A DNA stretch of 64,000 bases from an uncultured Enterobacterales bacterium (GTDB lineage: Bacteria > Myxococcota_A > UBA796 > JAFGLY01), in NCBI GenBank assembly GCA_964481655.1, contig CAYZVO010000015.1, positions 789 through 64,788 of the forward strand, in the 5' to 3' direction. Of the stretch, positions 4,122 through 64,000 are shown piece after piece; the first letter of the stretch is position 1; each line of letters begins with the position of its first letter. The notes below the pieces were generated by a model, which worked only from the letters and a program-made list of their open reading frames with translations, ran no database searches and was not told the origin of the DNA. Made by a program: the position numbers and the translations under genes.

Positions 4122-4133
4122 CGGGCCGCCCGT

Positions 4134-6423: not shown

Positions 6424-6482
6424 ACCTGACGGTGATCACGCTGGAAAGGTCAACGGGAATAGATGCGCGTGGCACTACGTAT

Positions 6483-6515: not shown

Positions 6516-6614
6516 GTCTGTTCTCGCCCTGCTCCCCACAGTCCCTGCGGTCCGCTCCGCCCCCTCTACTAAGGGCGTGATACGGGCCCAGGCCCCTCTC
6601 CCCGCTGGTGTTCC

Positions 6615-7991
6615 ATGCGCCGTTCACTCTCGATGTTGGTGGCTCTGACCCTGCTGCTCGCGGCCTGTGGAGGCGGTGGCGGGGACGGCAAGAACGGGCA
6701 TGGCGGTCCCGACGGCGGAGACGACACCCCGCCCCCCGATCCTCGCACATTGGTCGAAGCGGTCGAGGTCACCACCGGTGCTGTGGGCCAGTACGTGGTC
6801 AGCTCGGCGGTGGTGGAGTCCGAGGCCGCTGTGGACCTGCTGCCCGAGACCAACGGCGTGGTCACGGCGGTCAAGGTCGAGGAAGGCGACGCGGTGAGCA
6901 AGGGCCAGGTGCTGGCCGTCATCGAGAATCCCAACCTCGAGGCCACCATGGAGCGGGCCCGGGCCGAGCTCGAGCGGGTCGAGCAGAGCTACGGTGAGAT
7001 CCAGCGCCTGCGGGAGGCCAACGCGGTCAGCGAGCGCGAACTGCTCGACGCTCACCACGCCCTGGTCACCGCCCGGACCTCCTTCGACGAGGCCCAGCGC
7101 ATGGGCGCGACCACCCGCCTGGTCAGCCCCATCAGCGGCCACGTGGCCGCCCGGACCATCAAGTACGGCCAGCTGGTCAGCTCCGCTGTGCCCGCCTTCC
7201 AGGTCGTGGACCTCGACGAGCTGCGAGTCGTGGCCCAGCTGCCCGAGCGGGACCTGGCCCGCATCCGGGTGGGGCAGCCCGCTCAGCTGGTGCCGGTCTA
7301 CGACGAAGACGTGGTGGTGCCCGGTGAGGTCCTGCGGCTCTCCCCGGTGGTGAACTCCCAGACCGGAACCTTCCGAGTCACGGTCGCGCCTGTGGGTGAC
7401 GCCCAGCTGCTGCGCCCAGGCCAGTTCGTCTCGGTGCGCATCCAGGTGGACCACCACGAGGACACCCTGGTCCTGCCCCGCCGCGCGGTGCTCTACGATC
7501 GCGGCGAGCCCTATGTCTTCCGGGTCGAAGAGGTCCCGGACGAGGAGGGCGAGGACGAGGCCGAGGATGAGGCCGACGAGGACGAGGAAGAAGAGGACGA
7601 GGCCGAGCCCGGCTTCGTGGACAAGATCAAGGCCAAGATCGCCGAGATCCAGGAGAAGATGGCCCAGGCCCAGGGCATGGGCGGCGGCGAAGAGGAAGAG
7701 CCGCTCCCCGGGCCCAAGCGCCAGGCCTCCAAGGTCGACATCGAGCTGGGCTTCCTGGAGGTCGAGACCGTCGAGGTGATCGGCGGCCTCGAGGTGGGTG
7801 AGCTGGTGGTCAGCCTGGGCCACGAAGCCCTGCGGGACGAAGCCCGGGTGCGCCTGCCCGAAGACCTGAGCATGGCCGAGATCATGGAGCAGCGGAAGGC
7901 CGAAGCCGAGGCCGAAGAGGCCGCGGCGAAGGCCGAAGAAGACGGCGATGACGCCGGCGACGGTGACGACGCAGCGGCCGGCGACGAGTAG
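6615..7991 (+). CDS. efflux RND transporter periplasmic adaptor (MFP/HlyD family), lipoprotein, with an acidic insertion
   Basis: MRRSLSMLVALTLLLAACGG lipobox. Lipoyl-like hairpin GVVTAVKVEEGDAVSKGQVLAVIEN, a coiled coil, and RPGQFVSVRI beta-barrel blocks. There is an extra Glu/Asp-rich segment around nt 7527-7722 and an acidic C-terminal tail. Confidence 0.85.
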   Translation: MRRSLSMLVALTLLLAACGGGGGDGKNGHGGPDGGDDTPPPDPRTLVEAVEVTTGAVGQYVVSSAVVESEAAVDLLPETNGVVTAVKVEEGDAVSKGQVLAVIENPNLEATMERARAELERVEQSYGEIQRLREANAVSERELLDAHHALVTARTSFDEAQRMGATTRLVSPISGHVAARTIKYGQLVSSAVPAFQVVDLDELRVVAQLPERDLARIRVGQPAQLVPVYDEDVVVPGEVLRLSPVVNSQTGTFRVTVAPVGDAQLLRPGQFVSVRIQVDHHEDTLVLPRRAVLYDRGEPYVFRVEEVPDEEGEDEAEDEADEDEEEEDEAEPGFVDKIKAKIAEIQEKMAQAQGMGGGEEEEPLPGPKRQASKVDIELGFLEVETVEVIGGLEVGELVVSLGHEALRDEARVRLPEDLSMAEIMEQRKAEAEAEEAAAKAEEDGDDAGDGDDAAAGDE

Positions 7992-8006
7992 GTCGGGGGC
8001 ATCACG

Positions 8007-48631: not shown

Positions 48632-49782
48632 CAGAAGCGGACCTCCGTGGCGAGCCCGGGGATGGCCCGTCCCTCGTAGGGCACGAGGGTGGGGCTGGGC
48701 AGGGTGAAGGCCGTCAGCTTCAGACGGCCGAGGCGGCGGTCGGCGGGGGGAGTGAGCATCCAGCTGTTCAGGGCGTAGCCGGCCAGGCCCCCCGCGACGG
48801 TGGCGCCGGTGACGAAGGCCACGACGCCGTGCTCGGTGTACCAGACGATGTTCGAGGTGACCCAGGCGAAGCCGTAGGCCCCCATGCCACCCACCAGAGC
48901 ACCGGCGTTGAACATCCGGATGTCCTGACGGGACAGGCCCAGGCCCCGGGTGAGGGTCCAGCCACCAAGGGCGCCCAGGTTGGCGGCCAGGGCCAAGGGG
49001 TAGACGGAGTCCTCGTACAGCTCGTCGAAGGCGTAGGTGTAGGCCATCACCGCGAAGCCCAGTCCGGTGCCCCAGTAGGCCCCCCACTGCATGCCGAGGC
49101 TGGCCGCGGGGTCGGGGTCCTGCAGGGCCCACAGGGTGCCCGCAGCGGCGCCCGCGCCGGCGCCGAGCATCATGCCGGCGGGGATCGCGGACCAGCTGTA
49201 GTTGTCGCCGGTGATGGCGTAGCCGATGACGGCGCCGTTGAGGAGCCCCAGCTGCTCGATGCCGATGATGGTCGAGGCGGTGGCCGAGTCGATGCCGTGG
49301 TGCTTGGCCAGCAACAGGGCCGAGCCCGCGCCCAGCCCTCCACCGGCCATGGCCAGGGCGAGGTAGGCGCGCTCGTCGTAGCCCAGCGGTTCGTTGATCA
49401 GCAGGTTGGGCCCGAGCAGGTAGCTGCCCATGGCGGCCTGCCAGCCCACCAGGCGCACGGCGGGGCCGACGTCGCGCTTGGCGCCCTCGGGATCGGGCAG
49501 GCGGGCGAGCTTCAGGACCACAGCGCGGCGATCCTCGGAGGCCAGCTGTTGGTCGAGGACCCAGCGCAGCACGTCGCGGGCGGCGTCGTAGTCACCCTCG
49601 GCGCTCAGGTCGTCGGCCAGGATCAGGGCGGTCTCGATGGTGGGGTTGGGGGCCACCTCGATGGGATCAGGGGTCGTGGTCGCGGCCTCCGGGGCTGGGG
49701 GCTCCGCGGCCTGGACGTCCACGAAGTCGCGCTCCTGGGCCTGGGCGACGGTGAGGGCGGAGGCGAGCAGCAGTGACAACAT
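48631..49782 (-). CDS. hypothetical glycine-zipper-rich polytopic membrane protein, paralog 2
   Basis: ATG 49782 lies 7 nt after AGGAGG; GTG 49788 is the track start. Signal peptide, a TPR-like helix pair, then multiple Gly/Ala-rich hydrophobic segments. Ends ...ATEVRF. Confidence 0.65.
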   Translation of the reverse strand: MLSLLLASALTVAQAQERDFVDVQAAEPPAPEAATTTPDPIEVAPNPTIETALILADDLSAEGDYDAARDVLRWVLDQQLASEDRRAVVLKLARLPDPEGAKRDVGPAVRLVGWQAAMGSYLLGPNLLINEPLGYDERAYLALAMAGGGLGAGSALLLAKHHGIDSATASTIIGIEQLGLLNGAVIGYAITGDNYSWSAIPAGMMLGAGAGAAAGTLWALQDPDPAASLGMQWGAYWGTGLGFAVMAYTYAFDELYEDSVYPLALAANLGALGGWTLTRGLGLSRQDIRMFNAGALVGGMGAYGFAWVTSNIVWYTEHGVVAFVTGATVAGGLAGYALNSWMLTPPADRRLGRLKLTAFTLPSPTLVPYEGRAIPGLATEVRF

Positions 49783-49794
49783 CAGCACACCTCC

Positions 49795-50913
49795 TCAGAA
49801 GCGGTAGGCGACCAGCGGCAGGCCGTAGGCCAGGCCGTCGTCGCTGGGGATGGGGGTGGGGACGGGCACGCCGATGCGCAGCTCGTCGTCGGTGCCGCTG
49901 ATCAGCGCGGCCGCCAGGGCTCCGTCGCGAGCCCGGTGCTCCGAGCGCTTCGCCAGCCACAGGCCGACCCCGCCTCCCAGCAGGGTGCCCGCGGTGGCCA
50001 TGACGATCAGCGGTTCGTCGTCGATGCCGTTGTTCCAGGACAGCAGCGCGATGAGCTGCAGGGTGCCCACCCCGCCGATCACGCCGCCGAGGTTCATGGC
50101 CCAGACCTGGGAGCGGGACAGGTCCAGCCGGTGGGCCAGGGCCAGCCCGGCGAGGGTGCCCACGTCGCTCCAGACCAGCATCGAGGTCAGCAGTTCGTCG
50201 TCGTACCACTCCATCAGGCCGCCGTGGGCCGCGCCCATGGCCAGGCCCCAGACCGCGCCGGAGTGGGCGCCGAGGGCCTCGCCGCCGGTGGGGTCGGTCA
50301 TGGTCAGCAGGTAGCCACCTGCTGTGCCGACCCCGACCCCGGCCAGCAGGCCGATGGAGGTGTTCACCTCGTCCCCGCCGACCAGGTGGGCGATGGCCGC
50401 CCCGTTCCAGCCGCCCAGCTGTTGGGCGGCGATGACGGTGTTGGCCTGGCCCTGGCTCAGGCCGGGGCCCACCGCCATGGCGATGGCCGAGCCCGTGCCG
50501 AGGGCCGCGCCGCCCGCGGCCCCGATGAAGTAGGGCGTGGCGGTGCGCAGGGGATCGTAGCTGATGCGGGCCATGTGGGGCCCCAGCAGGTAGGCGCCAA
50601 GGGCCGTCTGCCAGGCCGCGAGGCGCATGGCGGGCATGACGTCCCGTCGGCGGCGGGGCAGGGTGGCCTGCAGGGCCTCGGCCTCGCTTCGCACGCCGGT
50701 GTCGAGCTCTTGCTCGAGCATCCAGTCCAGCGTCGCGCGGGCGCTGTCCCGCTGCTCGAGGGCGATCAGATCCTGGGCCAACGCCAGGGCCTCGGCGGGA
50801 TCGGCGGCCTCTTCGACCGGCGGGGTTGTGACCTCGGCCGCGCTCGGCGCCGCCTCCGGCGCCCCCAGCGCTGCGGCTGCCAATGACACTGTGAACCAGA
50901 CGGACGCCGCCAT
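49795..50913 (-). CDS. hypothetical glycine-zipper-rich polytopic membrane protein, paralog 1
   Basis: GGAGGAGCG RBS then ATG 50913. MAASVWFTVSLAAAALGAPEA. Same architecture as the downstream paralog (LRLAAWQTALGAYLLGP vs VRLVGWQAAMGSYLLGP). Ends ...VAYRF. Confidence 0.65.
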   Translation of the reverse strand: MAASVWFTVSLAAAALGAPEAAPSAAEVTTPPVEEAADPAEALALAQDLIALEQRDSARATLDWMLEQELDTGVRSEAEALQATLPRRRRDVMPAMRLAAWQTALGAYLLGPHMARISYDPLRTATPYFIGAAGGAALGTGSAIAMAVGPGLSQGQANTVIAAQQLGGWNGAAIAHLVGGDEVNTSIGLLAGVGVGTAGGYLLTMTDPTGGEALGAHSGAVWGLAMGAAHGGLMEWYDDELLTSMLVWSDVGTLAGLALAHRLDLSRSQVWAMNLGGVIGGVGTLQLIALLSWNNGIDDEPLIVMATAGTLLGGGVGLWLAKRSEHRARDGALAAALISGTDDELRIGVPVPTPIPSDDGLAYGLPLVAYRF

Positions 50914-51010
50914 CGCTCCTCCTGTGGGTCGATGCTGTGGCCCGGTCCAGTCTCTGACATCCTCCTGGTGCGCGCAAGGAGGCAGAACGATCACTCCCGT
51001 GCGCTTGCCG

Positions 51011-52041: not shown

Positions 52042-53598
52042 TCACTCGGTCCGCATCTCCAGCCCGTCCAGCTCCACCGTGCCGCTCTCCGCGGTGATGG
52101 TCAGGCGGGTGTGGAAGACCGCTCGGCCGCCGCTCGGCGCGGTGGCCTCGAGCTCGTGGAAGCTCCAGTCGCTGCCCAGCTCGATGGTCTCGCTGTGGCT
52201 GTCCAGCGGTGTGGTCCACATGGCCTGATCCCGGAAGTCGATGGTGACGGTGGCGCTGTCTCCATCGGCGGCGCCCCGCAGCCACAGGCCGACGGTGACG
52301 CGGTCGCCGTCCCGGGCCGGGTTGGGCTGGTGGGTGGAGGCGCCGTCGCTCAGGCGCAGGTAGGCGTCGCCTTCGTAGGCCCCGGTGGAATCCACCACCC
52401 GCTCTACGCCGGCGTCGTCGAGGTAGCGCCAGCCGTAGCCGCCGAAGGGGGCCACCTGCTCGAAGCCACCGTTGGCCAGGCCGCCGTCGGCGCCGAAGCC
52501 GGACATCAGGGCGGGCTCCTCGGCCTCCCAGCCCAGCACCTCCTCGAGGTGGGCGATGAGCACCCGGGCCATGCCGCCGTGGTCGTACTCGCAGCCGTGC
52601 CACTGCTCGAAGACCCAGGGGAAGGTCGCCACCGACACGTTCGGGTCCCCGTAGGCGTCCACCACCTCGGCGGTGTAGTCGGCGGGTTCGTCGTAGGCCC
52701 AGCCCCAGCCGTTGTAGACCACGATGTGGGCGTCGGGCTGGGCGGCGCGGAGCAGGTCGAGCATGGTCTCGTAGCGGCCGCGGATGGTGGGCTCGGAGGC
52801 CCCGTAGATGTCGTTGGCACCCAGGTTCATCACCACCACATCGGCGGGGTGTTCGGCGTGGTCCCAGGTGGGCTCGCTGTCGTACCAGCTCTGGCGATCG
52901 TACAGGGAGGTCATGCCCTGCAGGGTCTCCCCGGAGACGGAGATGTTGTGGTAGTCGGCCCCGAAGGCCCTGGCGACGACCCCTGCGTAGGTGAAGTGGC
53001 TGCCGTCGGTCTCGACGCCACCCTGGTTGCGCTCGCTCATCAGGGACGAGCCGGCCAGGTTGCTGTCGCCGTAGAACTCCATGCGGCGAGGGGCGGGCTC
53101 CGGCGGATCGAGCAGGTCCTCGCCTGCCAGGCCGAAGCCCCAGATCTCCAGATCGATGCCGAAGTAGGTCTCCTTGATCAGCTCGACGCTGTGCTCACCG
53201 GGCTCCAGGTCCTCGGCGAGCGCGAGATAGCTCAGGCCGGAGGTGACGAGGCGTTGGGAGCCGAGCTGGTCTCCGTCGATCACCACCCGGAACGCCTCGT
53301 CGTGGTTGCCAGCGTCCATGGTCACCCACAGGTCGGTGCCCTCGAAGCGCAGCGCCACGCTGGAGCCCTGCCAGCCGGCGCTCGGGGCGCTGCGATCGGT
53401 GAAGTTCCACCGGCCCGTGTAGCGCAGGCGGGGATCGTCGGGCTCGATGGCCAGGGGGTCGGTGGGCCGCCCGCTGTCCCCGGTGTCGTCGGAGCTGCTG
53501 TCGTCCGGGATGCTGTCGACCGGGGGGGCGCTGTCCGTGTCACCGGGGCCGGGGCAGCCGATCAGCAGGGGCAGCAGGATGATGGTCGCGCGGGTCAC
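52042..53598 (-). CDS. SGNH/GDSL hydrolase lipoprotein with N-terminal beta-sandwich (CE2-like layout) and C-terminal CBM4_9-like module
   Basis: GTG 53598 after GGAGGAG. VTRATIILLPLLIGC lipobox. FYGDSNLAG (block I), NLGANDI (block III). C-terminal ANGGFEQ...DGLEMRTE jelly-roll pattern. Confidence 0.75.
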   Translation of the reverse strand: MTRATIILLPLLIGCPGPGDTDSAPPVDSIPDDSSSDDTGDSGRPTDPLAIEPDDPRLRYTGRWNFTDRSAPSAGWQGSSVALRFEGTDLWVTMDAGNHDEAFRVVIDGDQLGSQRLVTSGLSYLALAEDLEPGEHSVELIKETYFGIDLEIWGFGLAGEDLLDPPEPAPRRMEFYGDSNLAGSSLMSERNQGGVETDGSHFTYAGVVARAFGADYHNISVSGETLQGMTSLYDRQSWYDSEPTWDHAEHPADVVVMNLGANDIYGASEPTIRGRYETMLDLLRAAQPDAHIVVYNGWGWAYDEPADYTAEVVDAYGDPNVSVATFPWVFEQWHGCEYDHGGMARVLIAHLEEVLGWEAEEPALMSGFGADGGLANGGFEQVAPFGGYGWRYLDDAGVERVVDSTGAYEGDAYLRLSDGASTHQPNPARDGDRVTVGLWLRGAADGDSATVTIDFRDQAMWTTPLDSHSETIELGSDWSFHELEATAPSGGRAVFHTRLTITAESGTVELDGLEMRTE

Positions 53599-54521
53599 GG
53601 TAGCTCTCCTCCTCGGCCGAACAGCCCGAAGGCGCCGCCGGTGTGCCAGAACAGCACCCTCCCGGTCATGCGTCCGGCGCGGGCCTCGCTGACGATGGCG
53701 TGCATGGCCTTGCCCGTGTAGCACGGGTCCACCAGCAGGCCCTCGCTGCGGGCGGTGAGCGCGATGGACTCCCAGCAGGCGCGGTCGGCCACGCCGTAGG
53801 CCGGGCCGGTGTAGCGGTCGTCGATGGACCAGCCCGCCGGGTCCACGGCCTGTGCACCGGCGGCCTGGTGCAGGGCCCGCACGCGGGCGGTGAAGCTCTC
53901 GGCGTCGTCGCAGACGGCGATGCCGTGCACGTGGCCCCGCAGCCCAGCCATGGCCAGGCCGGCCGCGGTGCCCCCGGAGCCCACCGCCACCACGTGGTGG
54001 TCGAAGCGCTCGTCGCCCAGCTCGCGGGTGGCGTCGGCGTAGGCGCGCGCGCCGTCGGCGTTGCTGCCACCCTCGGGGATCACCCAGGGGCGGGCCCCCT
54101 GGGCCCGCAGGCGCGCGGCGATGGACTCCATGATGGCGTCCCGCTCGCAGCGGTACTCATCGGGGGTGCACCAGTGGATGGTGGCCCCCAGCAGCCGGTC
54201 CAGCAGCAGGTTTCCGTCGGGCACGGCGGGGTCTTCGCCCCGCAGCAGCAGCACCGGCTGCAGCCCCAGCATCCGGGCCGCGACCGCGGTGGCCCGGCAG
54301 TGGTTGGACTGGATGCCGCCGGTGGTGATCAGGGTGTCTGCGCCGGCGGCCACGGCCTTGGCCAGGATGCGCTCGAGCTTGCGCACCTTGTTGCCCGACA
54401 GGCCCAGGCCGGTCAGGTCGTCGCGCTTGGCCCACAGCTCGATGCCGAGGGCGGCGGACAGGCGGGTCAGGGGCCTCAGCGGGGTGGGGAGCCGGGCGAG
54501 GGTGAGGGATGCTGGAGGCAT
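53595..54521 (-). CDS. PLP-dependent D-cysteine desulfhydrase / ACC deaminase family protein
   Basis: GAGGA RBS then ATG 54521. LWAKRDDLTGLGLSGNKVRKLE (PLP lysine motif), TTGGIQSNHCRATA, VVAVGSGGTAAG. Its stop overlaps the GTG of the SGNH gene (GTGA). The track ORF continuing to 56762 is read-through artefact. Confidence 0.85.
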   Translation of the reverse strand: MPPASLTLARLPTPLRPLTRLSAALGIELWAKRDDLTGLGLSGNKVRKLERILAKAVAAGADTLITTGGIQSNHCRATAVAARMLGLQPVLLLRGEDPAVPDGNLLLDRLLGATIHWCTPDEYRCERDAIMESIAARLRAQGARPWVIPEGGSNADGARAYADATRELGDERFDHHVVAVGSGGTAAGLAMAGLRGHVHGIAVCDDAESFTARVRALHQAAGAQAVDPAGWSIDDRYTGPAYGVADRACWESIALTARSEGLLVDPCYTGKAMHAIVSEARAGRMTGRVLFWHTGGAFGLFGRGGELP

Positions 54522-54668: not shown

Positions 54669-55250
54669 ATGTTCGGCATCGTCGTGTTGGTCACGCTGTT
54701 CCTGCCCCTCTCCGCCCACGCCGCCCCTCAGGGATGCGAGGCGGTCTGCACGGCCCTCAGCGCTGCGGGTGAACAGTGCATGGCGGATCTCGGACCCGAC
54801 CAGGAGCCCTGCACTACGCTGACCGGCAAGCTCCTGGACACCTGCGCCCTGGGCGAGGAGGCCAAGCCCGATGACTGCCTGGCCATCTGCGCCTCCCTGG
54901 TGTCTCTGGACCTGGCCTGCGACGACGACAAGGGCAAGGACAACGACGTCTGCAGGGCTATCGACGACATGGCCGACGATCTCTGCGCCGGCGAGGAACC
55001 CGACGCCAAGGACGAGGAGGTCGAGGCGGTGGGCGAGGGCGAGCCGCCCCCCGGAGGCGAGGAGGACCCGGACATGGGCGGGCCCGACCATGGCAAGCCC
55101 CCTGATCACGATGACCAGGCCAAGGGCGGACCGGCCGGTGAGGCCATCGTGCAGCCGGAAGGCGCCTGCGGCTGCGCGGCTGGCACCAGCCCCGCGACCG
55201 CGTCCCTGCTGCTGCTGCCGTTGTTGGGGCTCGCGATCCGCCGCGGCTAG
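54669..55250 (+). CDS. Cys-rich acidic secreted protein with canonical MYXO-CTERM tag
   Basis: GGAGG RBS. Signal peptide MFGIVVLVTLFLPLSAHA. About 10 Cys in the mature part. Ends GACGCAAGTSPATASLLLLPLLGLAIRRG. Confidence 0.75.
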   Translation: MFGIVVLVTLFLPLSAHAAPQGCEAVCTALSAAGEQCMADLGPDQEPCTTLTGKLLDTCALGEEAKPDDCLAICASLVSLDLACDDDKGKDNDVCRAIDDMADDLCAGEEPDAKDEEVEAVGEGEPPPGGEEDPDMGGPDHGKPPDHDDQAKGGPAGEAIVQPEGACGCAAGTSPATASLLLLPLLGLAIRRG

Positions 55251-56650
55251 CGGCCTCGGCGCAGCGTCGTGAGCATGGCCGCCAGCCGGAGGGGATAGGC
55301 CGGCTCGCGGATGGCGAGGCGGGCCAGGCGCGCGATGGTGCGCGGGTGGGCATAGAAGCGCCGCAGGGACCAGGCGCTCCAGCGGTTCAGCGCCGCGGGC
55401 TCCATGCCGCAGACTGCCTCTGGTCGGCCGGCGTGCTCCTGGTGCAGGGCCGAGCCCTCGATCAGGGACAGGGGGTTGAAGTGGGCGAAGTCGGCACCCA
55501 CCTCGAGGGCGAACTCGGGGTTGGCCCGCAGGCTCTCCGGGGTCTCCCCCGGCAGGCCCAGGACGAACTGCAGCGCCACGCTCATGCCCGCGCGGCGGGC
55601 GATGGGGATGGCCCGGCGCACCAGGGCGCGCTCTCCGGGATCCCGGCCGGCGCCCCGGAGCACCGTGGGGTCCGCCGACTGCACGCCCACGATCAGCAGG
55701 GCGCAGCCCGCCCGGGCCAGCGCCTGGAGCTTGGCCTCGGCGTCCCTGGCGAACACCACGGGGTGGGTGGTGCAGACCCAGCGCAGGGGGTAGCGGCGGG
55801 CGGCGAGCTCGCTGCAGAAGCGCTCCAGCCAGCGGGGGTCGATGCCGAAGGCGTCGTCCAGGAACGAGATTGAGCGCACCCCCAGCCGGCCGACCAGGTC
55901 GTCGACCTCGGCCAGCACCGTCTCCACCGACCGGTGACGGACCACCGGGTACAGGCCCGGCAGAGCGCAGAAGCTGCAGCGCCCGAAGCAGCCGCGGCTG
56001 GTCATGACCGTGGCGAAGGGCAGGCGCATGAAGGGCAGCCGCCAGTCGTGGTAGCGCCCGACGCTGGTCTCGTGGGCGAAGGGGAAGGGCAGGGCGTCGA
56101 GGTCCACCGGCGCGGCGGGCTCCGCCGCGATGGTGGGGACCCCCGGGGCGGCGTGGGCGATGCCGGGGATCGCCTCGAGGGCGGGGGCGCCGCCGCGGGC
56201 GTGGTCCACCAGCTGCAGGATCGTGTGCTCGCCCTCGCCGATGGCCACCGCGTCTGCGCCCGCCTCGAGGTAGCGGCGCCAGGCGGGGTGGTCGGGCCCA
56301 CCGACGGCGATGAGCGCGTCGGGCAGCGCGGCGCGGGCCGACCGCACCAGCTCGAGGGCCAGGGCCCGGCTGGGGGTGGTGGCGCTGATGCCGCACAGCG
56401 ATGGACGCTCGCGGCGCAGGTGCGCCAGGAACTCGGAGACGGTGCGGGGGCGCTCGAAGCCGTTGAGCAGGGTCGCCTCGATGCCGCGCTCGCGCCACAG
56501 GACCGCCGCCAGCTGCTGCAGGCCGAGCACCGGCATGCTCCGGATTCGGGCCTCGGCCAGGCGATCGGCCGGGGTCGTGGCCGGATCGTGGCCCGGGGCG
56601 ATCAGGCACACGCCGCCCTGGGGGCGCTGAGCTCCGGGGGCCGGCGTCAT
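55247..56650 (-). CDS. B12-binding domain-containing radical SAM protein (class B)
   Basis: N-terminal Rossmann-like B12 domain (CLIAPG...GISATTP...IAVGGPDH). Radical SAM motif SRGCFGRCSFC (CX3CX2C). ATG 56650 overlaps the upstream TGA. Confidence 0.85.
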   Translation of the reverse strand: MTPAPGAQRPQGGVCLIAPGHDPATTPADRLAEARIRSMPVLGLQQLAAVLWRERGIEATLLNGFERPRTVSEFLAHLRRERPSLCGISATTPSRALALELVRSARAALPDALIAVGGPDHPAWRRYLEAGADAVAIGEGEHTILQLVDHARGGAPALEAIPGIAHAAPGVPTIAAEPAAPVDLDALPFPFAHETSVGRYHDWRLPFMRLPFATVMTSRGCFGRCSFCALPGLYPVVRHRSVETVLAEVDDLVGRLGVRSISFLDDAFGIDPRWLERFCSELAARRYPLRWVCTTHPVVFARDAEAKLQALARAGCALLIVGVQSADPTVLRGAGRDPGERALVRRAIPIARRAGMSVALQFVLGLPGETPESLRANPEFALEVGADFAHFNPLSLIEGSALHQEHAGRPEAVCGMEPAALNRWSAWSLRRFYAHPRTIARLARLAIREPAYPLRLAAMLTTLRRGR

Positions 56651-59136
56651 GGGCTGGCCTCGTGGTCCGGCGCGGGCACGGCCCAGGGCTCGCGGGTAGG
56701 GGCGTGGCCCCGCTCGGCGCCGGCGAGAGCCCCTTCCAGGATCGCGCGCCAGCCTGGCTCATCCAGCGACGCCAACGCCGCGTCGATGGCCCCGGAGTCG
56801 GGGGCCGCCCGCTGCAGGTTCCAGGCCAGGCCCTGGATGCAGGCGTGCTGCAGGGGGGGCTCCAGGGCTGCCAGCCAGCGATTCGGTCGGTCCAGCGGGT
56901 CCCCGGCGTCCCAGCCGCCGCGGCACAGGCCGTGGGCGAAGGCAGGCTGCGCGGCTGGGCCCACCACCGCGAGCGAGGCCAGGGGGTCGGCGTGGGGGTC
57001 GTCGCTCTCGTCGCCGGCCCGCCAGCCTAGCTCCTCCAGCAGGGCCGGGTGGTAGTCCTCGGGGTAGCGCTGGGCCACGGCGATGGCGGCCGGGAGGTCG
57101 TCCCCGAGACGCTGCTGCAGGCCGATGCGCACTCCGTTGTGGGGGCCCATCTCCACCCGCCGGGCCAGCTCCTCGGCGAAGGGCACCACCTGCTCAGGGT
57201 CGGCCTCCACGGCGATGGTGAAGTGCATCAGCAGGCCGTCGTGGGCGTGGAAGCGGTAGGGCTCGGGGATGGCGGCTTCGATGACCCCCAGCTGGGCCTC
57301 CAGGGCCACCAGATCCCAGGGGTAGGCGTGGGCCAGGCCGTCCCAGAAGTCGTCCCGCAGGGCGCGGGGGAGCTGCGCGGCGCGGGCCCGTGCGGCGTCG
57401 AGATCGCCGCTGGTGCCGAGCTGCTCGCCCAGCATGAAGGCCGCCAGCCAGGAGCCGGCGTGCCCCGGCTCGCTGTCGTCGCTGTCGAGGCCGCAGGCGG
57501 GGTGGGCCAGCAGGGTCCAACCGCTCGGCGGTTCGTGGACAGTCGTCAACCCCAGGGCCGACGGCGGGATCGCCGCGGGCAGGGACTCGGGCCGTTCGAT
57601 GGCCACCATCACACAGCGCTCCCCCTCGATCAGCGCGCGCACCCCGGCCAGATCCTCCGCGGTATCCGCCGGGGGCTCCCGCAGGATCCGGGAGAGCTGC
57701 CGCAGGGCCGGCTCGACCCAGATCAGCTGGTCGGTGGAGGGCTCGGGTTGCCACATGTCCAGGTAGAAGCTGCCGCGGGTGTCGAGCTCGAGGTCCTCCC
57801 GGGCCATGACCACCAGCCAGGTGCTCTGGACATCGAGCTCGGCCAGGGTAGGCTCGAGGCGCAGGGAGGCCTCGGGGACCTCGAGGGTCCGCACGCGGGC
57901 CTCGACGGCGGTCCACAGCACCAGGCCCAGCGCCGCCGCCCACAGCATCGTGGCTCCCCGGCCGGGCAGGCGCGCGGTGAGGGCCGCGATCCCGGCGGCC
58001 GCCAGGCAGGTCAGGCAGAGCACGGGCCAGGCGGTGATCATGTCCAGCCTGCGGGCTCGCCACAGGACGTCGGACGCCTGCAGCAGGGGCAGCAGCTGGT
58101 CCGGCAGGGCGGTGATGAGGGCCAAGCCGCCGGCCATGAGCACGGTCACCGCGATGAGCACAGCCCGCTCCCGGCGGCCGATGCCGGTGGGCAGGGCGAC
58201 GCCTGCGATGGCCAGCAGCGCCACCAGCCAGGGCCAGGGGGAGCCAGCGGGGAGCAGGTGGGCCCGCCAGAGGCGGTGGTCGAACAGGGGGTTGGGGCTC
58301 TCGCCGATGGTCATCTCGGCCAATTCGGCGCGCTGCCGCTCCAGCACGTCCGTCAGGCCCGGCAGCAGAGGGGAGACCATCGCCACGGCCAGGGCCCCGG
58401 CGATGGCCACCCGGGCGGCGCCGCGCGCGCGCCCCCGCGGGCCGGGGAGCGCGACGGCCGCGAGCAGGACGATCCCTCCGACCGGGATCAGGCCGATGGC
58501 GAGTACCGGGCTGCTCAGGGCCAGCGCAGCCATGGCGACGCCGGCGGCGGGTGGCCCCCACAGATCGCGGCTGTCAGGCAGGCGCAGCAGCAGGATGAGG
58601 CAGAGGGGCAGCAGGGCGATCAGCCCGTAGTCCAGGCTGCTGCAGTGGACGGTGTGGATGACGAAGGGAGAGACCGCGAACAGCAGGCCGGTGAGCACCG
58701 CGGGGCCGCCCCGCCCCAGCAGCCGCCAGGCCAGCGCGGTCGCCAGCAGCGCCGCGGCCCACCAGGCGGCGAGCATGGACAGGTTGAAGGCCAGGATCGG
58801 GTGGAGCCAGCTGATGGGACCCCGCAACATCAGCGAGGGCAGGAAGGTGAACAGCTCCTGGTCTCGCAGGGGCTCGTGGCGCTCGAGGGCCTGGCCGATG
58901 GCCGCCAGACGATCGCAGGCCTGGGCGGCGTAGCCGAGCTCATCGATGGGGTCGACGGTCTGGAACCCCGGGCAGGCCGCGGCCATCAGCCAGCGATCGA
59001 GCACCGGCAGCAGGCTCCACTCCACCAGCAGCAGGACCCCCAGCAGGGCTCCGGCGGCCACCAGGACCCAGCCCCAGAGGGGCAGCGGCCCGCGGGGGGG
59101 CGTGTCCTGGGCAGCGCTGATGCTGGGGTCGCTCAT
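56647..59136 (-). CDS. large polytopic membrane protein with soluble C-terminal helical domain (GT-C-like topology, function unknown)
   Basis: 829 aa. About 10-12 hydrophobic segments in the first ~400 aa, then a soluble ~400-aa domain. High GC3. Confidence 0.65.
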   Translation of the reverse strand: MSDPSISAAQDTPPRGPLPLWGWVLVAAGALLGVLLLVEWSLLPVLDRWLMAAACPGFQTVDPIDELGYAAQACDRLAAIGQALERHEPLRDQELFTFLPSLMLRGPISWLHPILAFNLSMLAAWWAAALLATALAWRLLGRGGPAVLTGLLFAVSPFVIHTVHCSSLDYGLIALLPLCLILLLRLPDSRDLWGPPAAGVAMAALALSSPVLAIGLIPVGGIVLLAAVALPGPRGRARGAARVAIAGALAVAMVSPLLPGLTDVLERQRAELAEMTIGESPNPLFDHRLWRAHLLPAGSPWPWLVALLAIAGVALPTGIGRRERAVLIAVTVLMAGGLALITALPDQLLPLLQASDVLWRARRLDMITAWPVLCLTCLAAAGIAALTARLPGRGATMLWAAALGLVLWTAVEARVRTLEVPEASLRLEPTLAELDVQSTWLVVMAREDLELDTRGSFYLDMWQPEPSTDQLIWVEPALRQLSRILREPPADTAEDLAGVRALIEGERCVMVAIERPESLPAAIPPSALGLTTVHEPPSGWTLLAHPACGLDSDDSEPGHAGSWLAAFMLGEQLGTSGDLDAARARAAQLPRALRDDFWDGLAHAYPWDLVALEAQLGVIEAAIPEPYRFHAHDGLLMHFTIAVEADPEQVVPFAEELARRVEMGPHNGVRIGLQQRLGDDLPAAIAVAQRYPEDYHPALLEELGWRAGDESDDPHADPLASLAVVGPAAQPAFAHGLCRGGWDAGDPLDRPNRWLAALEPPLQHACIQGLAWNLQRAAPDSGAIDAALASLDEPGWRAILEGALAGAERGHAPTREPWAVPAPDHEASP

Positions 59137-59157
59137 GGCGGGCTTTGGGGTGGAGGG

Positions 59158-61035
59158 TCAGTCGCGATCGTAGTCGTAGCCCACCGCCGTGTCCCGGTAG
59201 GGCGAGGCGGTCTCGCGGTAGTTGCTGCTCATCCCGTCCACCTTCTGGGGGGCGTAGGCGTACATGGCCTCCATCGTCGCGATCCCCGCCAGCAGGCTGT
59301 CCCGGGCCTCGACGGGCTGGCCGGCTTCGGCCAGGGCCAGGCCCAGGGCGACCTGCAGCTCCGGGCGGCCGGGCGCGGCGTCCACGGCGTCCCGCAGCAG
59401 GGGCAGCGCGGCGCTTGCGCGGCCGTCGTACATCAGCTCCAGGGCCTCGTCGAGCAGGGCCTCGGCCCGGGGACCGCCCGGCGATCCCAGCTCACCGATC
59501 CGGCGGATGAGGGCCCGCAGGGAGCCCCGCTCGGCGTCGAGATCCCGCCGCGCCCAGTGCAGGAAGGCGGCGCGCTCCCGGGGGCTGATGGGCTGGTCCT
59601 CGAGCTCGGCGCGGGTGGCGGCGTCGATGGTCCAGGTGGCCAGGACCTCGAGCTCGGCATGCTTGGGCAGCACCCGCTCGAGGGCCTTGTTGCGGCGGGC
59701 GTGGACGTCCAGCCAGTGGCGGGTCGGGTCCTGGATCAGGTCGCCGCCGTCGATGATCCAGGTGTCCAGGAAGCGCTCGGCGTTGGGCAGGTGGTAGAGC
59801 ACGGCGCCGTCTTCGCCGTCGGCCAGGGCCAGCTCGGACAGCTGCAGGTGGGCCATGGAGCGGTAGGTCCGCAGGGTGTGCAGCCCGTAGTAGCCCCACA
59901 GCGCCGGGCTGCAGGCCACGGCCCAGGCGATGGCGATCAGCGCCGTGAGCGCGGGCACTACAGGCCGCGGTCGGCGCAGCAGGTCCCCGGCGCGCTCCGC
60001 CAGCCAGGTGCCGCCCGCGCCCGCGAACAGCAGCAGCATGGGCACCGTGAACATCAGGTGCTCGGCGTCGAAGGCGTCCCGGGTGCGCAGGGCGAAGGCG
60101 CCCCCAAGGGGCAGGCCCACGTGGGTGAGCAGCAGCAGCGCCTCGGGCCGCTTGCGGGCGGCGGTGACGGCCAGTCCGACCACCAGCAGGGCTGCGAACA
60201 GCCAGACCGCAGGCCCGGGCCCGGGGCCGTACAGGCCCAGCAGCTCGAGGGCGAAGTCGAGGTCGGCGTACAGCCGCGGGGTGGCCCAGCGCCCGATGCC
60301 CACCCCGTCGTTGTTCACCACCGTGCGGAAGAAGATGGGCAGATAGGGCAGGTAGCCCAGCACCACCACGCCCGTGGAGACCCCCAGCCCGGTGAGCACC
60401 CGGCGGCGCAGGGGGGGCTGGCGGGCGATCACCACCAGGGCCCAGGCGATGTTCGAGGCGATGAGCAGGGCCGTGTAGAACTGGTTGTACAAGGACAGCA
60501 GGGAGAGCAGCGCCAGGCCCGCGATGGACCAGACGTCGCCCCGCTTCAGCAGCCGCTGCAGGCACCACAGGGTGCCCAGGCCCAGCAGCACCATGCAGGG
60601 GTAGAACTTGGCCAGCTGGGACTGGAAGACGTGCATCGGGGCGAAGGTCAGCAGGGCGCAGGCCAGCAGGGCGGCGCGCTGGCCGAACCAGCGCCGACCG
60701 ACGACGTAGAGCACCGGCACCGCCGCGACCCCGCACAGCAGCCCCGGCAGCCGCAGCCCCAGGGCCGTGGGCAGGACCTCGAGCACCACGCTCTGCATGG
60801 CGTAGGTCAGCGGGATCATGAACAGGCCGTAGGGCGGCGGCGGCGTGAACAGCTCCAGCACGCCGAACTGAGCGGCCAGGAAGCTGTTGGTCTCGGTGCC
60901 CACCAGGGGGCGCGCGGCCACATCCAGGAAGCGCAGCAGCGCGGCGACGGCCGTCAGCCCCAGCACCACCGCCCACGGCACCAGCCGAGGGGAGCCATCG
61001 CTCTGGGGGGGCGGGTGCTGGTCGGTGGTGGTCAT
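59158..61035 (-). CDS. putative GT-C fold membrane glycosyltransferase (family 39/ArnT/PMT_2-like) with C-terminal TPR-like region
   Basis: 625 aa. N-terminal polytopic region with ArnT-like layout (LRFLDVAARPL...FLAAQFG...RLPGLLCGVAAVPVLYVVGRRWFG). C-terminal helical repeats. The usual DE/DxD in loop 1 is not obvious, so the family call is tentative. Confidence 0.55.
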   Translation of the reverse strand: MTTTDQHPPPQSDGSPRLVPWAVVLGLTAVAALLRFLDVAARPLVGTETNSFLAAQFGVLELFTPPPPYGLFMIPLTYAMQSVVLEVLPTALGLRLPGLLCGVAAVPVLYVVGRRWFGQRAALLACALLTFAPMHVFQSQLAKFYPCMVLLGLGTLWCLQRLLKRGDVWSIAGLALLSLLSLYNQFYTALLIASNIAWALVVIARQPPLRRRVLTGLGVSTGVVVLGYLPYLPIFFRTVVNNDGVGIGRWATPRLYADLDFALELLGLYGPGPGPAVWLFAALLVVGLAVTAARKRPEALLLLTHVGLPLGGAFALRTRDAFDAEHLMFTVPMLLLFAGAGGTWLAERAGDLLRRPRPVVPALTALIAIAWAVACSPALWGYYGLHTLRTYRSMAHLQLSELALADGEDGAVLYHLPNAERFLDTWIIDGGDLIQDPTRHWLDVHARRNKALERVLPKHAELEVLATWTIDAATRAELEDQPISPRERAAFLHWARRDLDAERGSLRALIRRIGELGSPGGPRAEALLDEALELMYDGRASAALPLLRDAVDAAPGRPELQVALGLALAEAGQPVEARDSLLAGIATMEAMYAYAPQKVDGMSSNYRETASPYRDTAVGYDYDRD

Positions 61036-63371
61036 GGCGCCGGCTCCGCGGCGCGCTCCGGGGGCCGCAGGGTCAGCAGCCTATCGCCTGCGGCGATCAG
61101 GAGCCGTCCGCCCCGGGCGTCCCAGGCGATGGCGGCGATGGGGTCCTTCCCCAACGGGCTGTCGCCGGCCTGGTGGCAGGTGGTCTCGCCGTCGATGCCC
61201 GTGCCGCACAGGGCCGCGCCGCTGGCGTGCCAGTGGCGGCCGTGGGGATCGGTCAGGCTGGTGCGCGGGGTGCCGCGGCAGCCGTGCGCGTCCTCGCTGC
61301 GGGGTGGTCCGGCGCGGGCGGCGATCCGCCAGCCCTGCTCGGTGCGCTCGAAGCCCACCGTGTCCTCGGCCGCCGACGCCTCGCCCCCGCGGTCGCGGAC
61401 CCGGGTCCAGGCCATGCCGCCGTTGGGCTCGACGCACCAGGCCGCGCCGGGCTGGCGAGCCTCGACCAGGAAGTACTTCACATCGACCGTGGTGACGCGC
61501 TCCATGCGCTCGAGCTCGACCTGGCTCCAGCCGCCGGCGAGGATCCGCTCCTCGAGGCGCAGGATGCTGGAGTCGCCGTCGTCCACCCGCACCCGGTGCC
61601 CGAGGCTGTCCACGGAGAGCCCGACGGCGTCGCCGGAGACCGAGGAGGTCGTGCGCAGCACCGTGATCTCGGCGCCGTCGGGGTACTCGTCCAGGTCCCG
61701 GGGGGACATGACCTCGCCCACTCGCTGGCGGAGCAGGGACAGCAGGTGGAACTCGGCGAAGCCGATGTCGTCGTCGCTGGTCCTGGCCGCGATCCATGCG
61801 TCGGCGTCGACCTCCTCGGCCAGCGTGATGGCGAGGTCGACCTCGCGGTTGGAAGAGGCCGAGATGGCGTCCAGATCGTGCACAGCGAGGAAGCGTCCCA
61901 GCTGCTGTGCGGTGGCACCCAGCTGGGCTCCGGCGCAGCCCAGCAGGTAGGCCAGCGCCAGCCCGGCGAGCGCCCACTGCCAGCGGGGCCGGCGCCCGGC
62001 GTCCTCGCGACGCCCCCCCAGCAGCAGGGCGGCGAGCAGCCACAACACCGGCACCACCGGCAGCATGGCCTCCACCCGCTTGTAGGTGGTCAGGGCGAAG
62101 AAGATCAGGTGGATCCAGACGAAGGCGGTGGGCACGAGCCAGGCCACCGGGCGCCCCCGGTGCAGCGCGAGCGCGGAGGCGGCCGCCAGCGCGGCGAGGG
62201 CCAGCAGGCCCTGACCCCAGTGGGTGAAGTAGCGCACGGCGAAGTGGCCCTTGCGCACCCAGACGCCGTCTTCGGCGAACTCGAAGGGGGCGCTGTTGGT
62301 GACCAGCAGCTTCGCGTAGAGCAGCGGCTCCAGCCCTCCGCCCGTGATCCCCACCTGGCCGGCGACCACCTCGGCCGCGTTCCAGCTGTGCTGCAGCTGC
62401 AGCGCCGCGGTGGGCAGGGTCAACAGCGCGAAGACGGCGGCCCCTGGCCACCACCACAGCAGCCGTCGGCGTTCGGGGCTGCTCCAGGCCCACAGCACCA
62501 GCTCGAGGGCCAGCGCGGCGCTCAGCGCCATGCCCACGTTGTAGCGGCACCAGGTGCACAGCCACAGCAGCGCGCCCAGCGCGGCCGCGAGGCCCATGGC
62601 GCGTCCCCGGGCCTGGGCCAGCCAGGCGCCCCGCAGGCCCGCGTGGGCCCACAGCGCCCCGAACAGCAGGGCCATGGCCACCAGGTCCTCCGGGGTCTCG
62701 CCGGCGAAGAGGCACTGCAGCACGAAGGGGCAAGACAGGGCCAGCATGGCCAGGGCGGCCTGGGACACCGCGCTCACCCGCCCCTGCCAGGCGCGCAGGA
62801 TGCCCGAACCCGCCACCAGCACCGCGGCCGTGCACAGGAAGTACAGGGCCCGTAGGGCCTGCAAGGTGTCCAGCCCCAGGGGCCGGAGCGCGGTCTCGGT
62901 GAGGCCCGCGAGCAGCACGGTCACGAAGGGGTGCTTGCGCGGCTCGAAGAGGATGGCGAGCAGCTCGCCGAGCCTGCCTGCGCTGATGGCGTCGGCCACC
63001 GCGGCGCTGGGCGCGAGGTACTCGACCTCGTGGGGGTTCACCAGATCGAAGCCGTGCCAGGGCAGGGGACCCCACCACAGGGCGGCCAGCGCGGCCAGGC
63101 CCGCCAGCAGGGGCAGCGATCGTGTCGTGGCCGCGATCAGGGTCCGAGCGCTCCGATGATCCGCGCGACAGTACGGGAACCGAGGAAGCCGTAACAGAGA
63201 TCGCCGTGCAGGTGCCCGTCGGAGCTCGGTTGGGCGCGCCGGGGCCGCGTCCGGTAGGATTCCTTGCAGCCCCTCCCGGACCCCGATGCCCGCTCCACGC
63301 TCCCCCCTGCCGCTGCGTCGCCGCCTCTTGCTCGGGGCGGTGGTGAGCGTGGCTGCGCTGCTCATCGCCAT
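61032..63371 (-). CDS. large polytopic membrane protein with soluble C-terminal domain (function unknown); start uncertain
   Basis: Its stop overlaps the ATG of the next gene (ATGA). The hydrophobic core starts at LPLLAGLAALAALWW. The longest ATG ORF (63371) overlaps the divergent gene by 86 nt, and GC3 drops between about 63145 and 63200. Alternative starts are CTG 63140 (GGAG 10 nt upstream) or GTG 63041. Confidence 0.5.
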   Translation of the reverse strand: MAMSSAATLTTAPSKRRRRSGRGERGAGIGVREGLQGILPDAAPARPTELRRAPARRSLLRLPRFPYCRADHRSARTLIAATTRSLPLLAGLAALAALWWGPLPWHGFDLVNPHEVEYLAPSAAVADAISAGRLGELLAILFEPRKHPFVTVLLAGLTETALRPLGLDTLQALRALYFLCTAAVLVAGSGILRAWQGRVSAVSQAALAMLALSCPFVLQCLFAGETPEDLVAMALLFGALWAHAGLRGAWLAQARGRAMGLAAALGALLWLCTWCRYNVGMALSAALALELVLWAWSSPERRRLLWWWPGAAVFALLTLPTAALQLQHSWNAAEVVAGQVGITGGGLEPLLYAKLLVTNSAPFEFAEDGVWVRKGHFAVRYFTHWGQGLLALAALAAASALALHRGRPVAWLVPTAFVWIHLIFFALTTYKRVEAMLPVVPVLWLLAALLLGGRREDAGRRPRWQWALAGLALAYLLGCAGAQLGATAQQLGRFLAVHDLDAISASSNREVDLAITLAEEVDADAWIAARTSDDDIGFAEFHLLSLLRQRVGEVMSPRDLDEYPDGAEITVLRTTSSVSGDAVGLSVDSLGHRVRVDDGDSSILRLEERILAGGWSQVELERMERVTTVDVKYFLVEARQPGAAWCVEPNGGMAWTRVRDRGGEASAAEDTVGFERTEQGWRIAARAGPPRSEDAHGCRGTPRTSLTDPHGRHWHASGAALCGTGIDGETTCHQAGDSPLGKDPIAAIAWDARGGRLLIAAGDRLLTLRPPERAAEPAP

Positions 63372-64000
63372 CGCTGGCGCCGAGCTGGCCGTGCGGCTGC
63401 TGGGGGTCCCCGAGCGGGTCTATCCGGACTATCGAGTGGTCACCGCCCAGCTGGACGGCGCCATCCTCGAGCACAACTTCCTGCAGCCCCACCCCACGCG
63501 CCTGTGGCAGAACACACCGGGGAAGGGCGAGGTGGATGCGCGGGGCTACCGCCGGACCCTCCAGCCCGAGCCCACCGGGGACGCGCTGCGGGTGCTCTTT
63601 CTGGGGGACTCGGTCACCTATGGTCACGACGCCGCCTGGGACGAGAGCCTGCCCTCGGCGGCGGCCCGACTCGCAGGCGGGCGGGTCGTCAGCGTCAACG
63701 CCGGCGTGGTGGGGTACTCGTCCTTTCAGGGCCTGCAGACCCTGCGGGTGGACCGCCCCCACCGGGACGCCGACGTGGTGGTGGTCAGCTTCTACCAGAA
63801 CGACGAGGACGAGGGCTGCCTGCACGACGTGCAGCTGTACGAGCACAACCGCCGGCTGCTGCGCACCGACAGCCTGCTGGCCGGCTCCCGGCTGCACAAC
63901 CTCTGGGCCCTGCGCCGGCTGTCCCGGGAGGAGGCGCGCAGCCTGATGCAGCCCCACTGCGACGACGGGCAGCTGCTGCGGGTCCCCCCCGAGGACTTCA
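63286..64000 (+). CDS. SGNH/GDSL hydrolase family protein, membrane-anchored; 3' end outside the window
   Basis: Not in the ORF track because there is no stop inside the window. My manual translation from ATG 63286 is open to nt 64000: MPAPRSPLPLRRRLLLGAVVSVAALLIAIAG..., with block I LFLGDSVTYG and block II NAGVVGYSS. Confidence 0.7.
   Translation, partial: MPAPRSPLPLRRRLLLGAVVSVAALLIAIAGAELAVRLLGVPERVYPDYRVVTAQLDGAILEHNFLQPHPTRLWQNTPGKGEVDARGYRRTLQPEPTGDALRVLFLGDSVTYGHDAAWDESLPSAAARLAGGRVVSVNAGVVGYSSFQGLQTLRVDRPHRDADVVVVSFYQNDEDEGCLHDVQLYEHNRRLLRTDSLLAGSRLHNLWALRRLSREEARSLMQPHCDDGQLLRVPPEDF

Follow-up and report, generated by a model that had tools for sequence, protein, structure and literature searches.

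We describe a block of four consecutive minus-strand genes (genes 1 to 4) in a 64,000-nucleotide stretch of contig CAYZVO010000015.1 (hereafter, the window), which comes from an uncultured bacterium that GTDB places in the Myxococcota_A. The four genes very likely form one co-transcribed operon, in which two predicted glycosyltransferases of the GT-C fold, one of them from a previously unannotated family, stand beside a further membrane protein and a predicted cobalamin (B12)-binding radical S-adenosylmethionine (SAM) enzyme of class B. Modified lipid A, arabinans, and protein O- and N-glycans are among the many structures of the bacterial cell surface that GT-C enzymes make, and class B radical SAM enzymes catalyze demanding reactions at C-H bonds. 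Our preferred reading, which we hold tentatively and place somewhat short of an even chance, is that the operon builds or decorates an exported envelope glycoconjugate and that the product of gene 4 tailors a sugar or a lipid-linked intermediate of that pathway. The combination of genes and two unannotated protein families are new, and the operon has been seen in a single uncultured lineage. We know of no described ArnT or PMT operon with a radical SAM enzyme; a literature search agreed, returning no GT-C operon with a B12-dependent radical SAM enzyme, and in this respect the initial annotation of the window, which had called the combination undescribed, was right.

The four-gene block and its products

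The genes of the block and the parts of their products discussed below are as follows.

61032..63371, minus strand: gene 1 (M1), orphan polytopic membrane protein (open reading frame [ORF], hydropathy, and GC content at third codon positions [GC3])
59158..61035, minus strand: gene 2 (M2), predicted GT-C glycosyltransferase of the PMT_2/ArnT type, 625 residues
56647..59136, minus strand: gene 3 (M3), membrane domain (residues 1 to 550) followed by a solenoid (residues 551 to 829)
57487..59136, minus strand: gene 3 residues 1 to 550, predicted GT-C membrane domain with a small alpha/beta domain (AlphaFold, Foldseek)
58936..58956, minus strand: VDPIDEL motif in the first extracytoplasmic loop of gene 3, with candidate catalytic acids D62 and E66 (alignment, model)
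56647..57486, minus strand: gene 3 residues 551 to 829, predicted all-alpha solenoid (HMMER hits, AlphaFold model)
55247..56650, minus strand: gene 4, predicted class B radical SAM enzyme, 467 residues
55967..55990, minus strand: CX3CX2C motif CFGRCSFC, residues 221 to 228 of gene 4, by its position the predicted ligands of the radical SAM [4Fe-4S] cluster

All four genes lie where the initial annotation had placed them. The window has a GC content of about 71 %, GC3 is 0.91 to 0.99 in these frames for every gene of the block, and three independent gene callers (JGI, ENA, and Logan) returned the same genes on the parent contig, which is about 72 to 75 kb long, reaches beyond the window end, and is present in at least three assemblies as near-identical contigs. 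The junction sequences also contain the spacing that had been claimed, with ATGA overlaps of start and stop codons between genes 1 and 2 (61032-61035) and between genes 3 and 4 (56647-56650), and with gene 3 set 21 nt apart from gene 2 (59158 to 59136). We found no terminator-like site on the minus strand inside the block. Given the two overlaps, the short gap, and the lack of an internal terminator, the four genes are very likely co-transcribed, and a division into separate transcription units, the outcome that had been set against the proposed pathway from the outset, was not borne out. The operon has four genes, since the convergent gene at 54669..55250 terminates where gene 4 does, the two stop codons sharing the palindrome CTAG at 55247-55250. 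Near the operon there was no Rfam match to a cobalamin riboswitch or other RNA, and no tRNA.

Hydropathy agrees with the layout described earlier for genes 1 to 3, each of which encodes a multipass membrane domain of about 400 residues followed by a soluble part of 250 to 420 residues. We considered the three as mutual paralogs and rejected this, as BLASTP found no pairwise similarity among them.

For gene 2, an ArnT/PMT-like layout with TPR-like repeats had been proposed. The protein scored 35.4 bits against PMT_2 (PF13231; cutoff, 26.1; E 1.5e-8; residues 76 to 220) and 23.9 bits against STT3, slightly under the cutoff. Its membrane domain ends at about residue 376 and is followed by one or two tetratricopeptide repeats (TPR_19/TPR_16; residues 528 to 586), for which TPR_19 reached 25.9 bits against a cutoff of 25 on a C-terminal fragment. 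The PMT_2 match thus supports the proposed layout above the cutoff and the repeats are weakly confirmed, and gene 2 is, as judged from its sequence, a PMT_2-type GT-C enzyme with a short TPR tail. As read directly from the sequence, the loop after its first transmembrane helix (TM1) is RPLVGTETNSFLAAQ and contains one Glu only.

Gene 3 as a whole matched no family in Pfam or NCBIfam, and we searched for its relatives by running HMMER over all 1.84 billion proteins of a representative set, which gave 102 matches. Residues 1 to 550 resemble about 25 clusters of proteins of 550 to 580 residues. An AlphaFold model of this part, computed from an alignment of 23 relatives, had a predicted local distance difference test (pLDDT) score of 83.7 and a predicted template modeling score of 0.87, and all 21 of its best Foldseek matches in the PDB were GT-C enzymes. 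The top match was ArnT (5f15; E 2e-5; template modeling score, 0.53), and the others included DPY19, AftA, PglB, STT3, AftD, Pmt4, and Emb. Transporters appeared among the matches at probabilities of 0.2 or less only, so that the match to transporters that the initial annotation had named as a refutation did not emerge for this part. At the level of sequence profiles, hhalign aligned gene 2 with the gene-3 family at a probability of 95 % (E 4e-8), and the best PDB sequence match of the family profile was a weak one to TMEM260 (E 0.0037). The best curated match of gene 3 was GT87, under its threshold (E 0.0077; 16.4 bits against a cutoff of 25); no curated GT-C family was reached, and PMT_2 was detected in 1 of the 23 relatives, again below threshold. 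A word-index search with gene 3 had returned the query alone, which was a false negative, given that a paralog (E 1e-83) is present in the same collection. For Ala/Leu-rich membrane proteins from high-GC genomes, a result of "no homolog" from such a search is unreliable.

In GT-C enzymes, the catalytic acids lie in the loop after TM1. The corresponding VDPIDEL motif of gene 3 is placed by the model at the start of a helix (residues 61 to 71) between TM1 (residues 20 to 38) and the next transmembrane helix, and D62 and E66 are invariant in an alignment of the seven closest family members, which also keep SLDYG and LWRxR motifs. We regard D62 and E66 as a candidate catalytic acidic pair of the GT-C type. 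Because the model matches GT-C folds only, the profile matches lead to TMEM260 and to gene 2, and the first loop carries this acidic pair, gene 3 is predicted to be a GT-C-fold enzyme of a previously unannotated family.

The C-terminal part of gene 3 belongs to a second family. About 75 of the 102 HMMER matches cover residues 551 to 829 only and are standalone proteins of 250 to 370 residues, most of them with a signal peptide, a lipobox, or a transmembrane anchor, and gene 3 is the sole member of the membrane family retrieved with this domain attached. No Pfam family was found in 41 members, and the neighborhood of one standalone member, at L016, offered no clue. The model of the domain (pLDDT, 91.4) is all alpha, with 15 helices, and had no significant neighbor in the PDB (best E 0.16); across the family, EELGW is invariant and NGVRIGLQ is conserved. 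By analogy with the TPR tail of gene 2, the solenoid may be a module that binds an acceptor or a partner protein. One member of the family, P0085 (1,178 residues), is fused to 14 MopE-type copper-binding motifs.

Gene 4 has the two domains that had been described for it. A B12-binding domain (PF02310; 54 bits against a cutoff of 32.1; residues 39 to 147) precedes a Radical_SAM domain (PF04055; 67.3 bits against 29.5; residues 217 to 374) that contains the CX3CX2C motif, and hydropathy indicated no transmembrane helix. JGI starts the gene at a GTG 13 codons downstream (454 residues), in which case the ATGA overlap is lost; the overlapping ATG is preceded by GAGG 7 nt upstream. No cutoff was reached for any named class B subfamily in NCBIfam, all scores being far below it: HpnJ, 94.2 bits against 577.6; PhpK, 87.2 against 600; BchE, 87.2 against 481; AprD4, 70.3 against 500; and HpnR, 45.8 against 650. 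The best PDB sequence match was AprD4 (6fd2; E 4.7e-17). Gene 4 is therefore a predicted soluble class B enzyme outside the named subfamilies.

A class B radical methylation, or a related reaction, had been proposed for this enzyme. The class assignment stands, but methylation is not the only candidate, as the nearest characterized relatives (HpnJ, AprD4, BchE, and PhpK) are mostly non-methylases. Sequence does not separate the methylases from the non-methylating members of class B. AprD4 is a sugar dehydratase. For HpnJ, ring contraction of a hopanoid-bound glucosamine has been proposed (PMC13459092). Given that these two nearest relatives act on sugar rings, deoxygenation, ring contraction, or epimerization of a sugar would be as plausible for gene 4 as C-methylation.

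Gene 1 is the least understood part of the block. By hydropathy, it encodes about 10 to 12 hydrophobic helices and a C-terminal soluble domain of about 290 residues. Its start candidates are ATG 63371 (779 residues), the near-cognate CTG/ATC at 63140/63137, and GTG 63041 (669 residues). If translation started at ATG 63371, gene 1 and the divergent SGNH gene would share 86 nt. The GC3 coding signal sets in only near residue 79, and residues 3 to 111 include no ATG, GTG, or TTG; the gene callers choose GTG 63041, and the first hydrophobic helix is thereby lost. Gene 1 had no match in Pfam or NCBIfam even at E 10 (for Pfam, also with fragments), a PDB sequence search returned no GT-C enzyme among its matches, and both tblastn against plasmids and phmmer against the ORFs of all fetched loci were empty. 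The word-index protein search returned the query alone, which is weak evidence, since the same search missed the gene-3 relatives. With hhalign, gene 1 scored 0.3 % against the gene-3 family profile, compared with 95 % for gene 2 as the positive control, and showed no similarity to gene 2 or to U610 (a distant gene-3 family member described below). Gene 1 is a further membrane component whose layout (about 11 helices and a C-terminal domain) is compatible with GT-C. The earlier description of three GT-C-like membrane proteins thus holds for gene 2, through PMT_2, and for gene 3, through its model, Foldseek, and hhalign, but finds no similarity to rest on in gene 1.

Surroundings of the block and loci of its relatives

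Five features close to the block bear on its possible function; those past the window end are given in the coordinates of locus L006.

63286..64000, plus strand: first gene of the divergent operon listed next, for an SGNH/GDSL protein anchored in the membrane at its N terminus; truncated by the window end, 351 residues in full (Lipase_GDSL_2, E 4.5e-12)
L006:8701-9756, 7721-8641, and 6105-7724, minus strand on L006: divergent operon past position 64000, in the order SGNH, flippase-like, gene-3 paralog
L006:3250-5082, plus strand: U610, distant gene-3 family member, 610 residues (E 8e-8 against the paralog; hhalign, 98.9 % against the family profile)
L006:5079-6101, plus strand: second radical SAM gene, 340 residues (CNYSCSYC at residues 40 to 47 and a Cys-rich SPASM-like tail, without a B12 domain)
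54669..55250, plus strand: Cys-/Asp-rich secreted protein, 193 residues (MXAN_5453 family, E 2e-6; MYXO-CTERM, E 0.0086, below cutoff)

The flippase-like protein scored over the cutoffs of both LPG_synthase_TM and TIGR00374, and its gene is overlapped by that of the gene-3 paralog; this coupling is found in the divergent operon, outside the four-gene block itself. The paralog (515 to 539 residues) is 41 % identical to gene 3 over 542 aligned positions (E 2e-63) and has no solenoid domain. On the other side of it, the stop codon of U610 overlaps the start of the second radical SAM gene, again as ATGA, and a sulfatase gene and a GH5-like gene precede the pair. Among the 25 best NCBIfam matches of this radical SAM protein, there was no anaerobic sulfatase-maturase model that would mark it as a maturase of the sulfatase. 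U610 and the paralog both lie within about 17 kb of the block on the same contig, on which a membrane gene of the GT-C family overlaps a radical SAM gene twice within about 11 kb, and four of the five large membrane proteins encoded here were judged to be GT-C.

SGNH esterases had been described as flanking the block on both sides. Both are present, but the gene at 63286 runs along the plus strand, divergently from the block, and the one at 52042..53598 belongs to a separate unit. The MYXO-CTERM-like tail of the secreted protein encoded at 54669..55250 suggests a myxobacterial lineage.

Loci of gene-3 relatives were compared in a sample of six (L007 to L012; 4.5 to 11 kb each). A degenerate DNA pattern led to one genome locus and two metagenome loci, and a search of GTDB genomes with the alignment of gene 3 and its paralog was empty. 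SGNH genes recur beside the relatives (three at L009, two at L012, and one at L010), as do pairs of a gene-3-like and a U610-like gene. L009 (GTDB contig CAZEJJ010000016.1) is syntenic with the metagenome locus L012; it is labeled "uncultured Enterobacterales" and has a GC content of 72 %, and this taxonomic label looks wrong. At L008, a class I SAM methyltransferase is encoded at 3510-4403 (plus strand), 4 nt after the gene-3 relative, and another relative, P0116 (830 residues), carries a fused methyltransferase domain at residues 633 to 731 that is below threshold. There is a weak hint in these sequences that methylation may accompany the gene-3 family.

The loci of six gene 4 relatives are listed next.

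L001: GT4 gene near the gene 4 relative
L013 (ENA SUTE22-1 scaffold_984, from the sample of the window): B12 radical SAM gene (33 % tblastn identity to gene 4) overlapping a flippase-like gene
L014: GT2, GT4, GT9, and ABC exporter genes near the gene 4 relative
L015: GT2, KASIII, acyl carrier protein (ACP), and short-chain dehydrogenase/reductase (SDR) genes and a polytopic protein near the gene 4 relative
L017: GT2, GT9, two GT4 genes, and PMT_2 near the closest gene 4 relative (39 % identity)
L018: UbiA prenyltransferase gene, with no glycosyltransferase gene nearby

Five of the six (L001, L013, L014, L015, and L017) are rich in glycosyltransferase genes, which would be in keeping with a role in glycoconjugates or lipids. 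Locus L013 also encodes a GT2 enzyme, two carbamoyltransferases, two paralogs of the small radical SAM gene, and a membrane protein that matched the gene-3 family profile at 88 % (E 3e-6); the tetranucleotide correlation of this locus with the window is 0.954, no better than for unrelated high-GC loci.

A possible glycoconjugate pathway and its alternatives

In the pathway that we tentatively favor, gene 4 would modify a sugar or a lipid-linked intermediate on the cytoplasmic side of the membrane. The enzyme should be cytoplasmic because it needs SAM, a reductant, and cobalamin and has no membrane helix or signal, and from this location it would act on a precursor before flipping. The flippase-like protein of the divergent operon could then carry the intermediate across the membrane, after which, on the outer side of the inner membrane, the products of genes 2 and 3 would take the sugar from a polyprenyl-phosphate donor and pass it to an acceptor; that both use donors linked to polyprenyl phosphate we infer by analogy with other GT-C enzymes. 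The acceptor may be held by the TPR domain of gene 2 or the alpha-solenoid of gene 3, and the SGNH proteins may add acyl groups to the product or remove them. A more specific version, in which the radical SAM enzyme makes an unusual donor by C-methylation, deoxygenation, or ring contraction of a polyprenyl-phosphate sugar on the cytoplasmic side and a dedicated, unannotated GT-C family with one solenoid-fused member transfers it to an envelope acceptor, we consider unlikely.

Several observations weigh against the glycoconjugate reading. The initial annotation expected the radical SAM gene to accompany the membrane genes in other genomes, and at the loci covered it did not do so: tblastn found no radical SAM gene in the 4.5 to 11 kb available at each of the six loci of gene-3 relatives, and no orthologous four-gene cluster was found in other genomes. 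Gene 4 shares no more than 37 to 39 % identity with its closest relatives, which usually adjoin other B12 radical SAM genes, not GT-C genes, and the UbiA gene at L018 points to lipids. A donor synthase of the GT2 family was absent from the 75-kb contig in a tblastn search with three GT2 proteins taken from related loci (E 0.01), as it was from the gene calls around the operon. Gene 1 has no sequence or profile similarity to GT-C enzymes in Pfam, NCBIfam, the PDB, or hhalign, and the searches did not show it to be a glycosyltransferase. The main limit is that the operon comes from a single uncultured lineage and that the coupling is not conserved among gene-3 relatives. The earlier proposal of a lipid-linked glycan or envelope-lipid pathway therefore keeps the support of two GT-C enzymes and of the glycosyltransferase-rich loci of gene 4 relatives but lacks that of co-occurrence.

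We weighed four other explanations against these data. Gene 4 might modify the tail of a membrane lipid or an isoprenoid and be co-expressed with the GT-C enzymes in envelope remodeling without sharing a substrate with them, which we also hold to be unlikely. Several class B radical SAM enzymes modify lipids, HpnP and HpnR among them, as do lipid radical SAM enzymes of archaea and bacteria; gene 4 matches TIGR04072 ("lipid biosynthesis B12-binding/radical SAM protein") at E 5e-16, and two of its relatives lie by the KASIII, ACP, and SDR genes of L015 and the UbiA gene of L018. The range of lipid-modifying radical SAM enzymes is broad (PMC13459092). However, the scores of gene 4 against lipid families are far below the cutoffs (58.3 bits against 360 for TIGR04072, in addition to the HpnR score above), no lipid-synthesis genes were seen near the operon in the window or the rest of the contig, and genes whose start and stop codons overlap, as here with a GT-C gene, more typically serve a single pathway. 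Less likely again is the absence of any functional link, such that the radical SAM gene was added to a GT-C operon in one lineage and serves an unrelated process. This would account for an arrangement found in one organism only, as near-identical contigs in three assemblies, and for the six gene-3-relative loci without a radical SAM neighbor, and ATGA overlaps are common in high-GC genomes; what speaks for a link is that the same types of parts (B12 radical SAM, small radical SAM, flippase-like, and GT-C-like) meet at L013, that the same contig has, at a distance of 11 kb, another overlap between a membrane protein gene and a radical SAM gene, and that gene 4 relatives occur in glycosyltransferase clusters at five of six loci.

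Our estimate is lower still for protein glycosylation, in which the TPR and solenoid domains would bind exported proteins, as in the eukaryotic TMTC and TMEM260 O-mannosyltransferases, the GT-C enzymes would act on secreted or MYXO-CTERM-anchored proteins, and gene 4 would modify either the same protein or peptide ahead of its export or the sugar donor. The match to TMEM260 is weak, and the best structural match of gene 3 is ArnT, a lipid A transferase, even though no PDB sequence matches the gene-3 family better than TMEM260 does and gene 2 combines PMT_2 with a TPR layout. A Cys-rich MYXO-CTERM-like secreted protein is encoded directly downstream, but its gene is convergent and outside the operon; similarly, the neighboring second radical SAM gene belongs to the SPASM/peptide-maturase type, but gene 4 itself scored weakly against models of methyltransferases for ribosomally synthesized and posttranslationally modified peptides (66.8 bits against 281.85). 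An acylation system, in which the gene-3 family and the SGNH proteins would move acyl groups onto an exported polymer, much as O-acetylation systems made of a membrane protein and an SGNH protein do, with the radical SAM enzyme as an accessory, appears very unlikely. It would explain why SGNH genes repeatedly flank gene-3 relatives, on the window contig as well as at L009, L012, and L010, but the model of gene 3 resembles GT-C folds only, with no MBOAT or acyltransferase-3 protein among its significant matches, and the family keeps the first-loop acidic pair of GT-C enzymes.

The envelope glycoconjugate reading can also be set beside known systems. With ArnT and other PMT_2-type or related GT-C enzymes (GT83/GT39, PglB/STT3, DPY19, and AftA), the block shares the PMT_2 assignment of gene 2 and, in gene 3, the predicted fold, two acidic residues in the first outer loop, and an outer domain at the C terminus, but gene 3 falls under all Pfam and NCBIfam cutoffs and has the additional alpha-solenoid. 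The eukaryotic protein O-mannosyltransferases TMTC1-4 and TMEM260 likewise have a GT-C domain followed by TPR or helical repeats, as genes 2 and 3 do; they differ in the weakness of the match, in the bacterial host, and in a solenoid without detectable similarity to TPR families. The division of labor would resemble that of the Gtr- and CsbB/GtcA/YfhO-type systems and the Arn pathway, in which cytoplasmic enzymes make and tailor a lipid-linked sugar that is then flipped before a GT-C enzyme transfers it; the flippase-like gene nearby is coupled to the gene-3 paralog, outside the four-gene block. Unlike in these three-component systems, no GT2 gene was detected on the contig by tblastn, and the candidate flippase belongs to the MprF-TM/TIGR00374 type and not to GtrA; compared with the Arn pathway, the proposed tailoring enzyme is a radical SAM protein in place of the deformylase ArnD. 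Finally, gene 4 has the domain order of GenK/GenD1, AprD4, and HpnJ (its best NCBIfam match), class B enzymes that act on sugars or glycolipids, with the B12-binding domain before a radical SAM core with CX3CX2C, but it is far below the cutoffs, by 6-fold or more for HpnJ and AprD4, and the gene calls near it include no aminoglycoside or hopanoid genes.

If a direct link between the GT-C enzymes and the radical SAM enzyme is real, it would represent a new kind of modification of sugars or lipid-linked donors in bacterial envelopes and would give a testable role to a widespread and uncharacterized clade of B12 radical SAM proteins found in glycosyltransferase clusters. Should the more specific version hold, the pathway would be the first with a lipid-linked glycosyl donor tailored by a radical SAM enzyme and would offer a first way into the function of the many B12 radical SAM genes in such clusters. 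Independently of this link, the analysis adds two unannotated families, one of predicted GT-C enzymes (about 25 clusters) and one of exported alpha-solenoid proteins (about 75 clusters, with no solved relative).

Other genes of the window

Downstream of the block, two minus-strand genes form a unit of their own.

53595..54521, minus strand: pyridoxal phosphate (PLP) enzyme of the D-cysteine desulfhydrase/1-aminocyclopropane-1-carboxylate (ACC) deaminase family, in a separate downstream unit
52042..53598, minus strand: CE2_N and SGNH esterase, GTGA-coupled to the PLP enzyme, in a unit separate from the block

The pairing of a PLP enzyme with a CE2_N/SGNH esterase is unusual. Farther along the same strand, the genes at 48631..49788 and 49795..50994 encode tandem paralogs that are 37.5 % identical over 269 residues (E 1.5e-29) and have no precomputed Pfam family.

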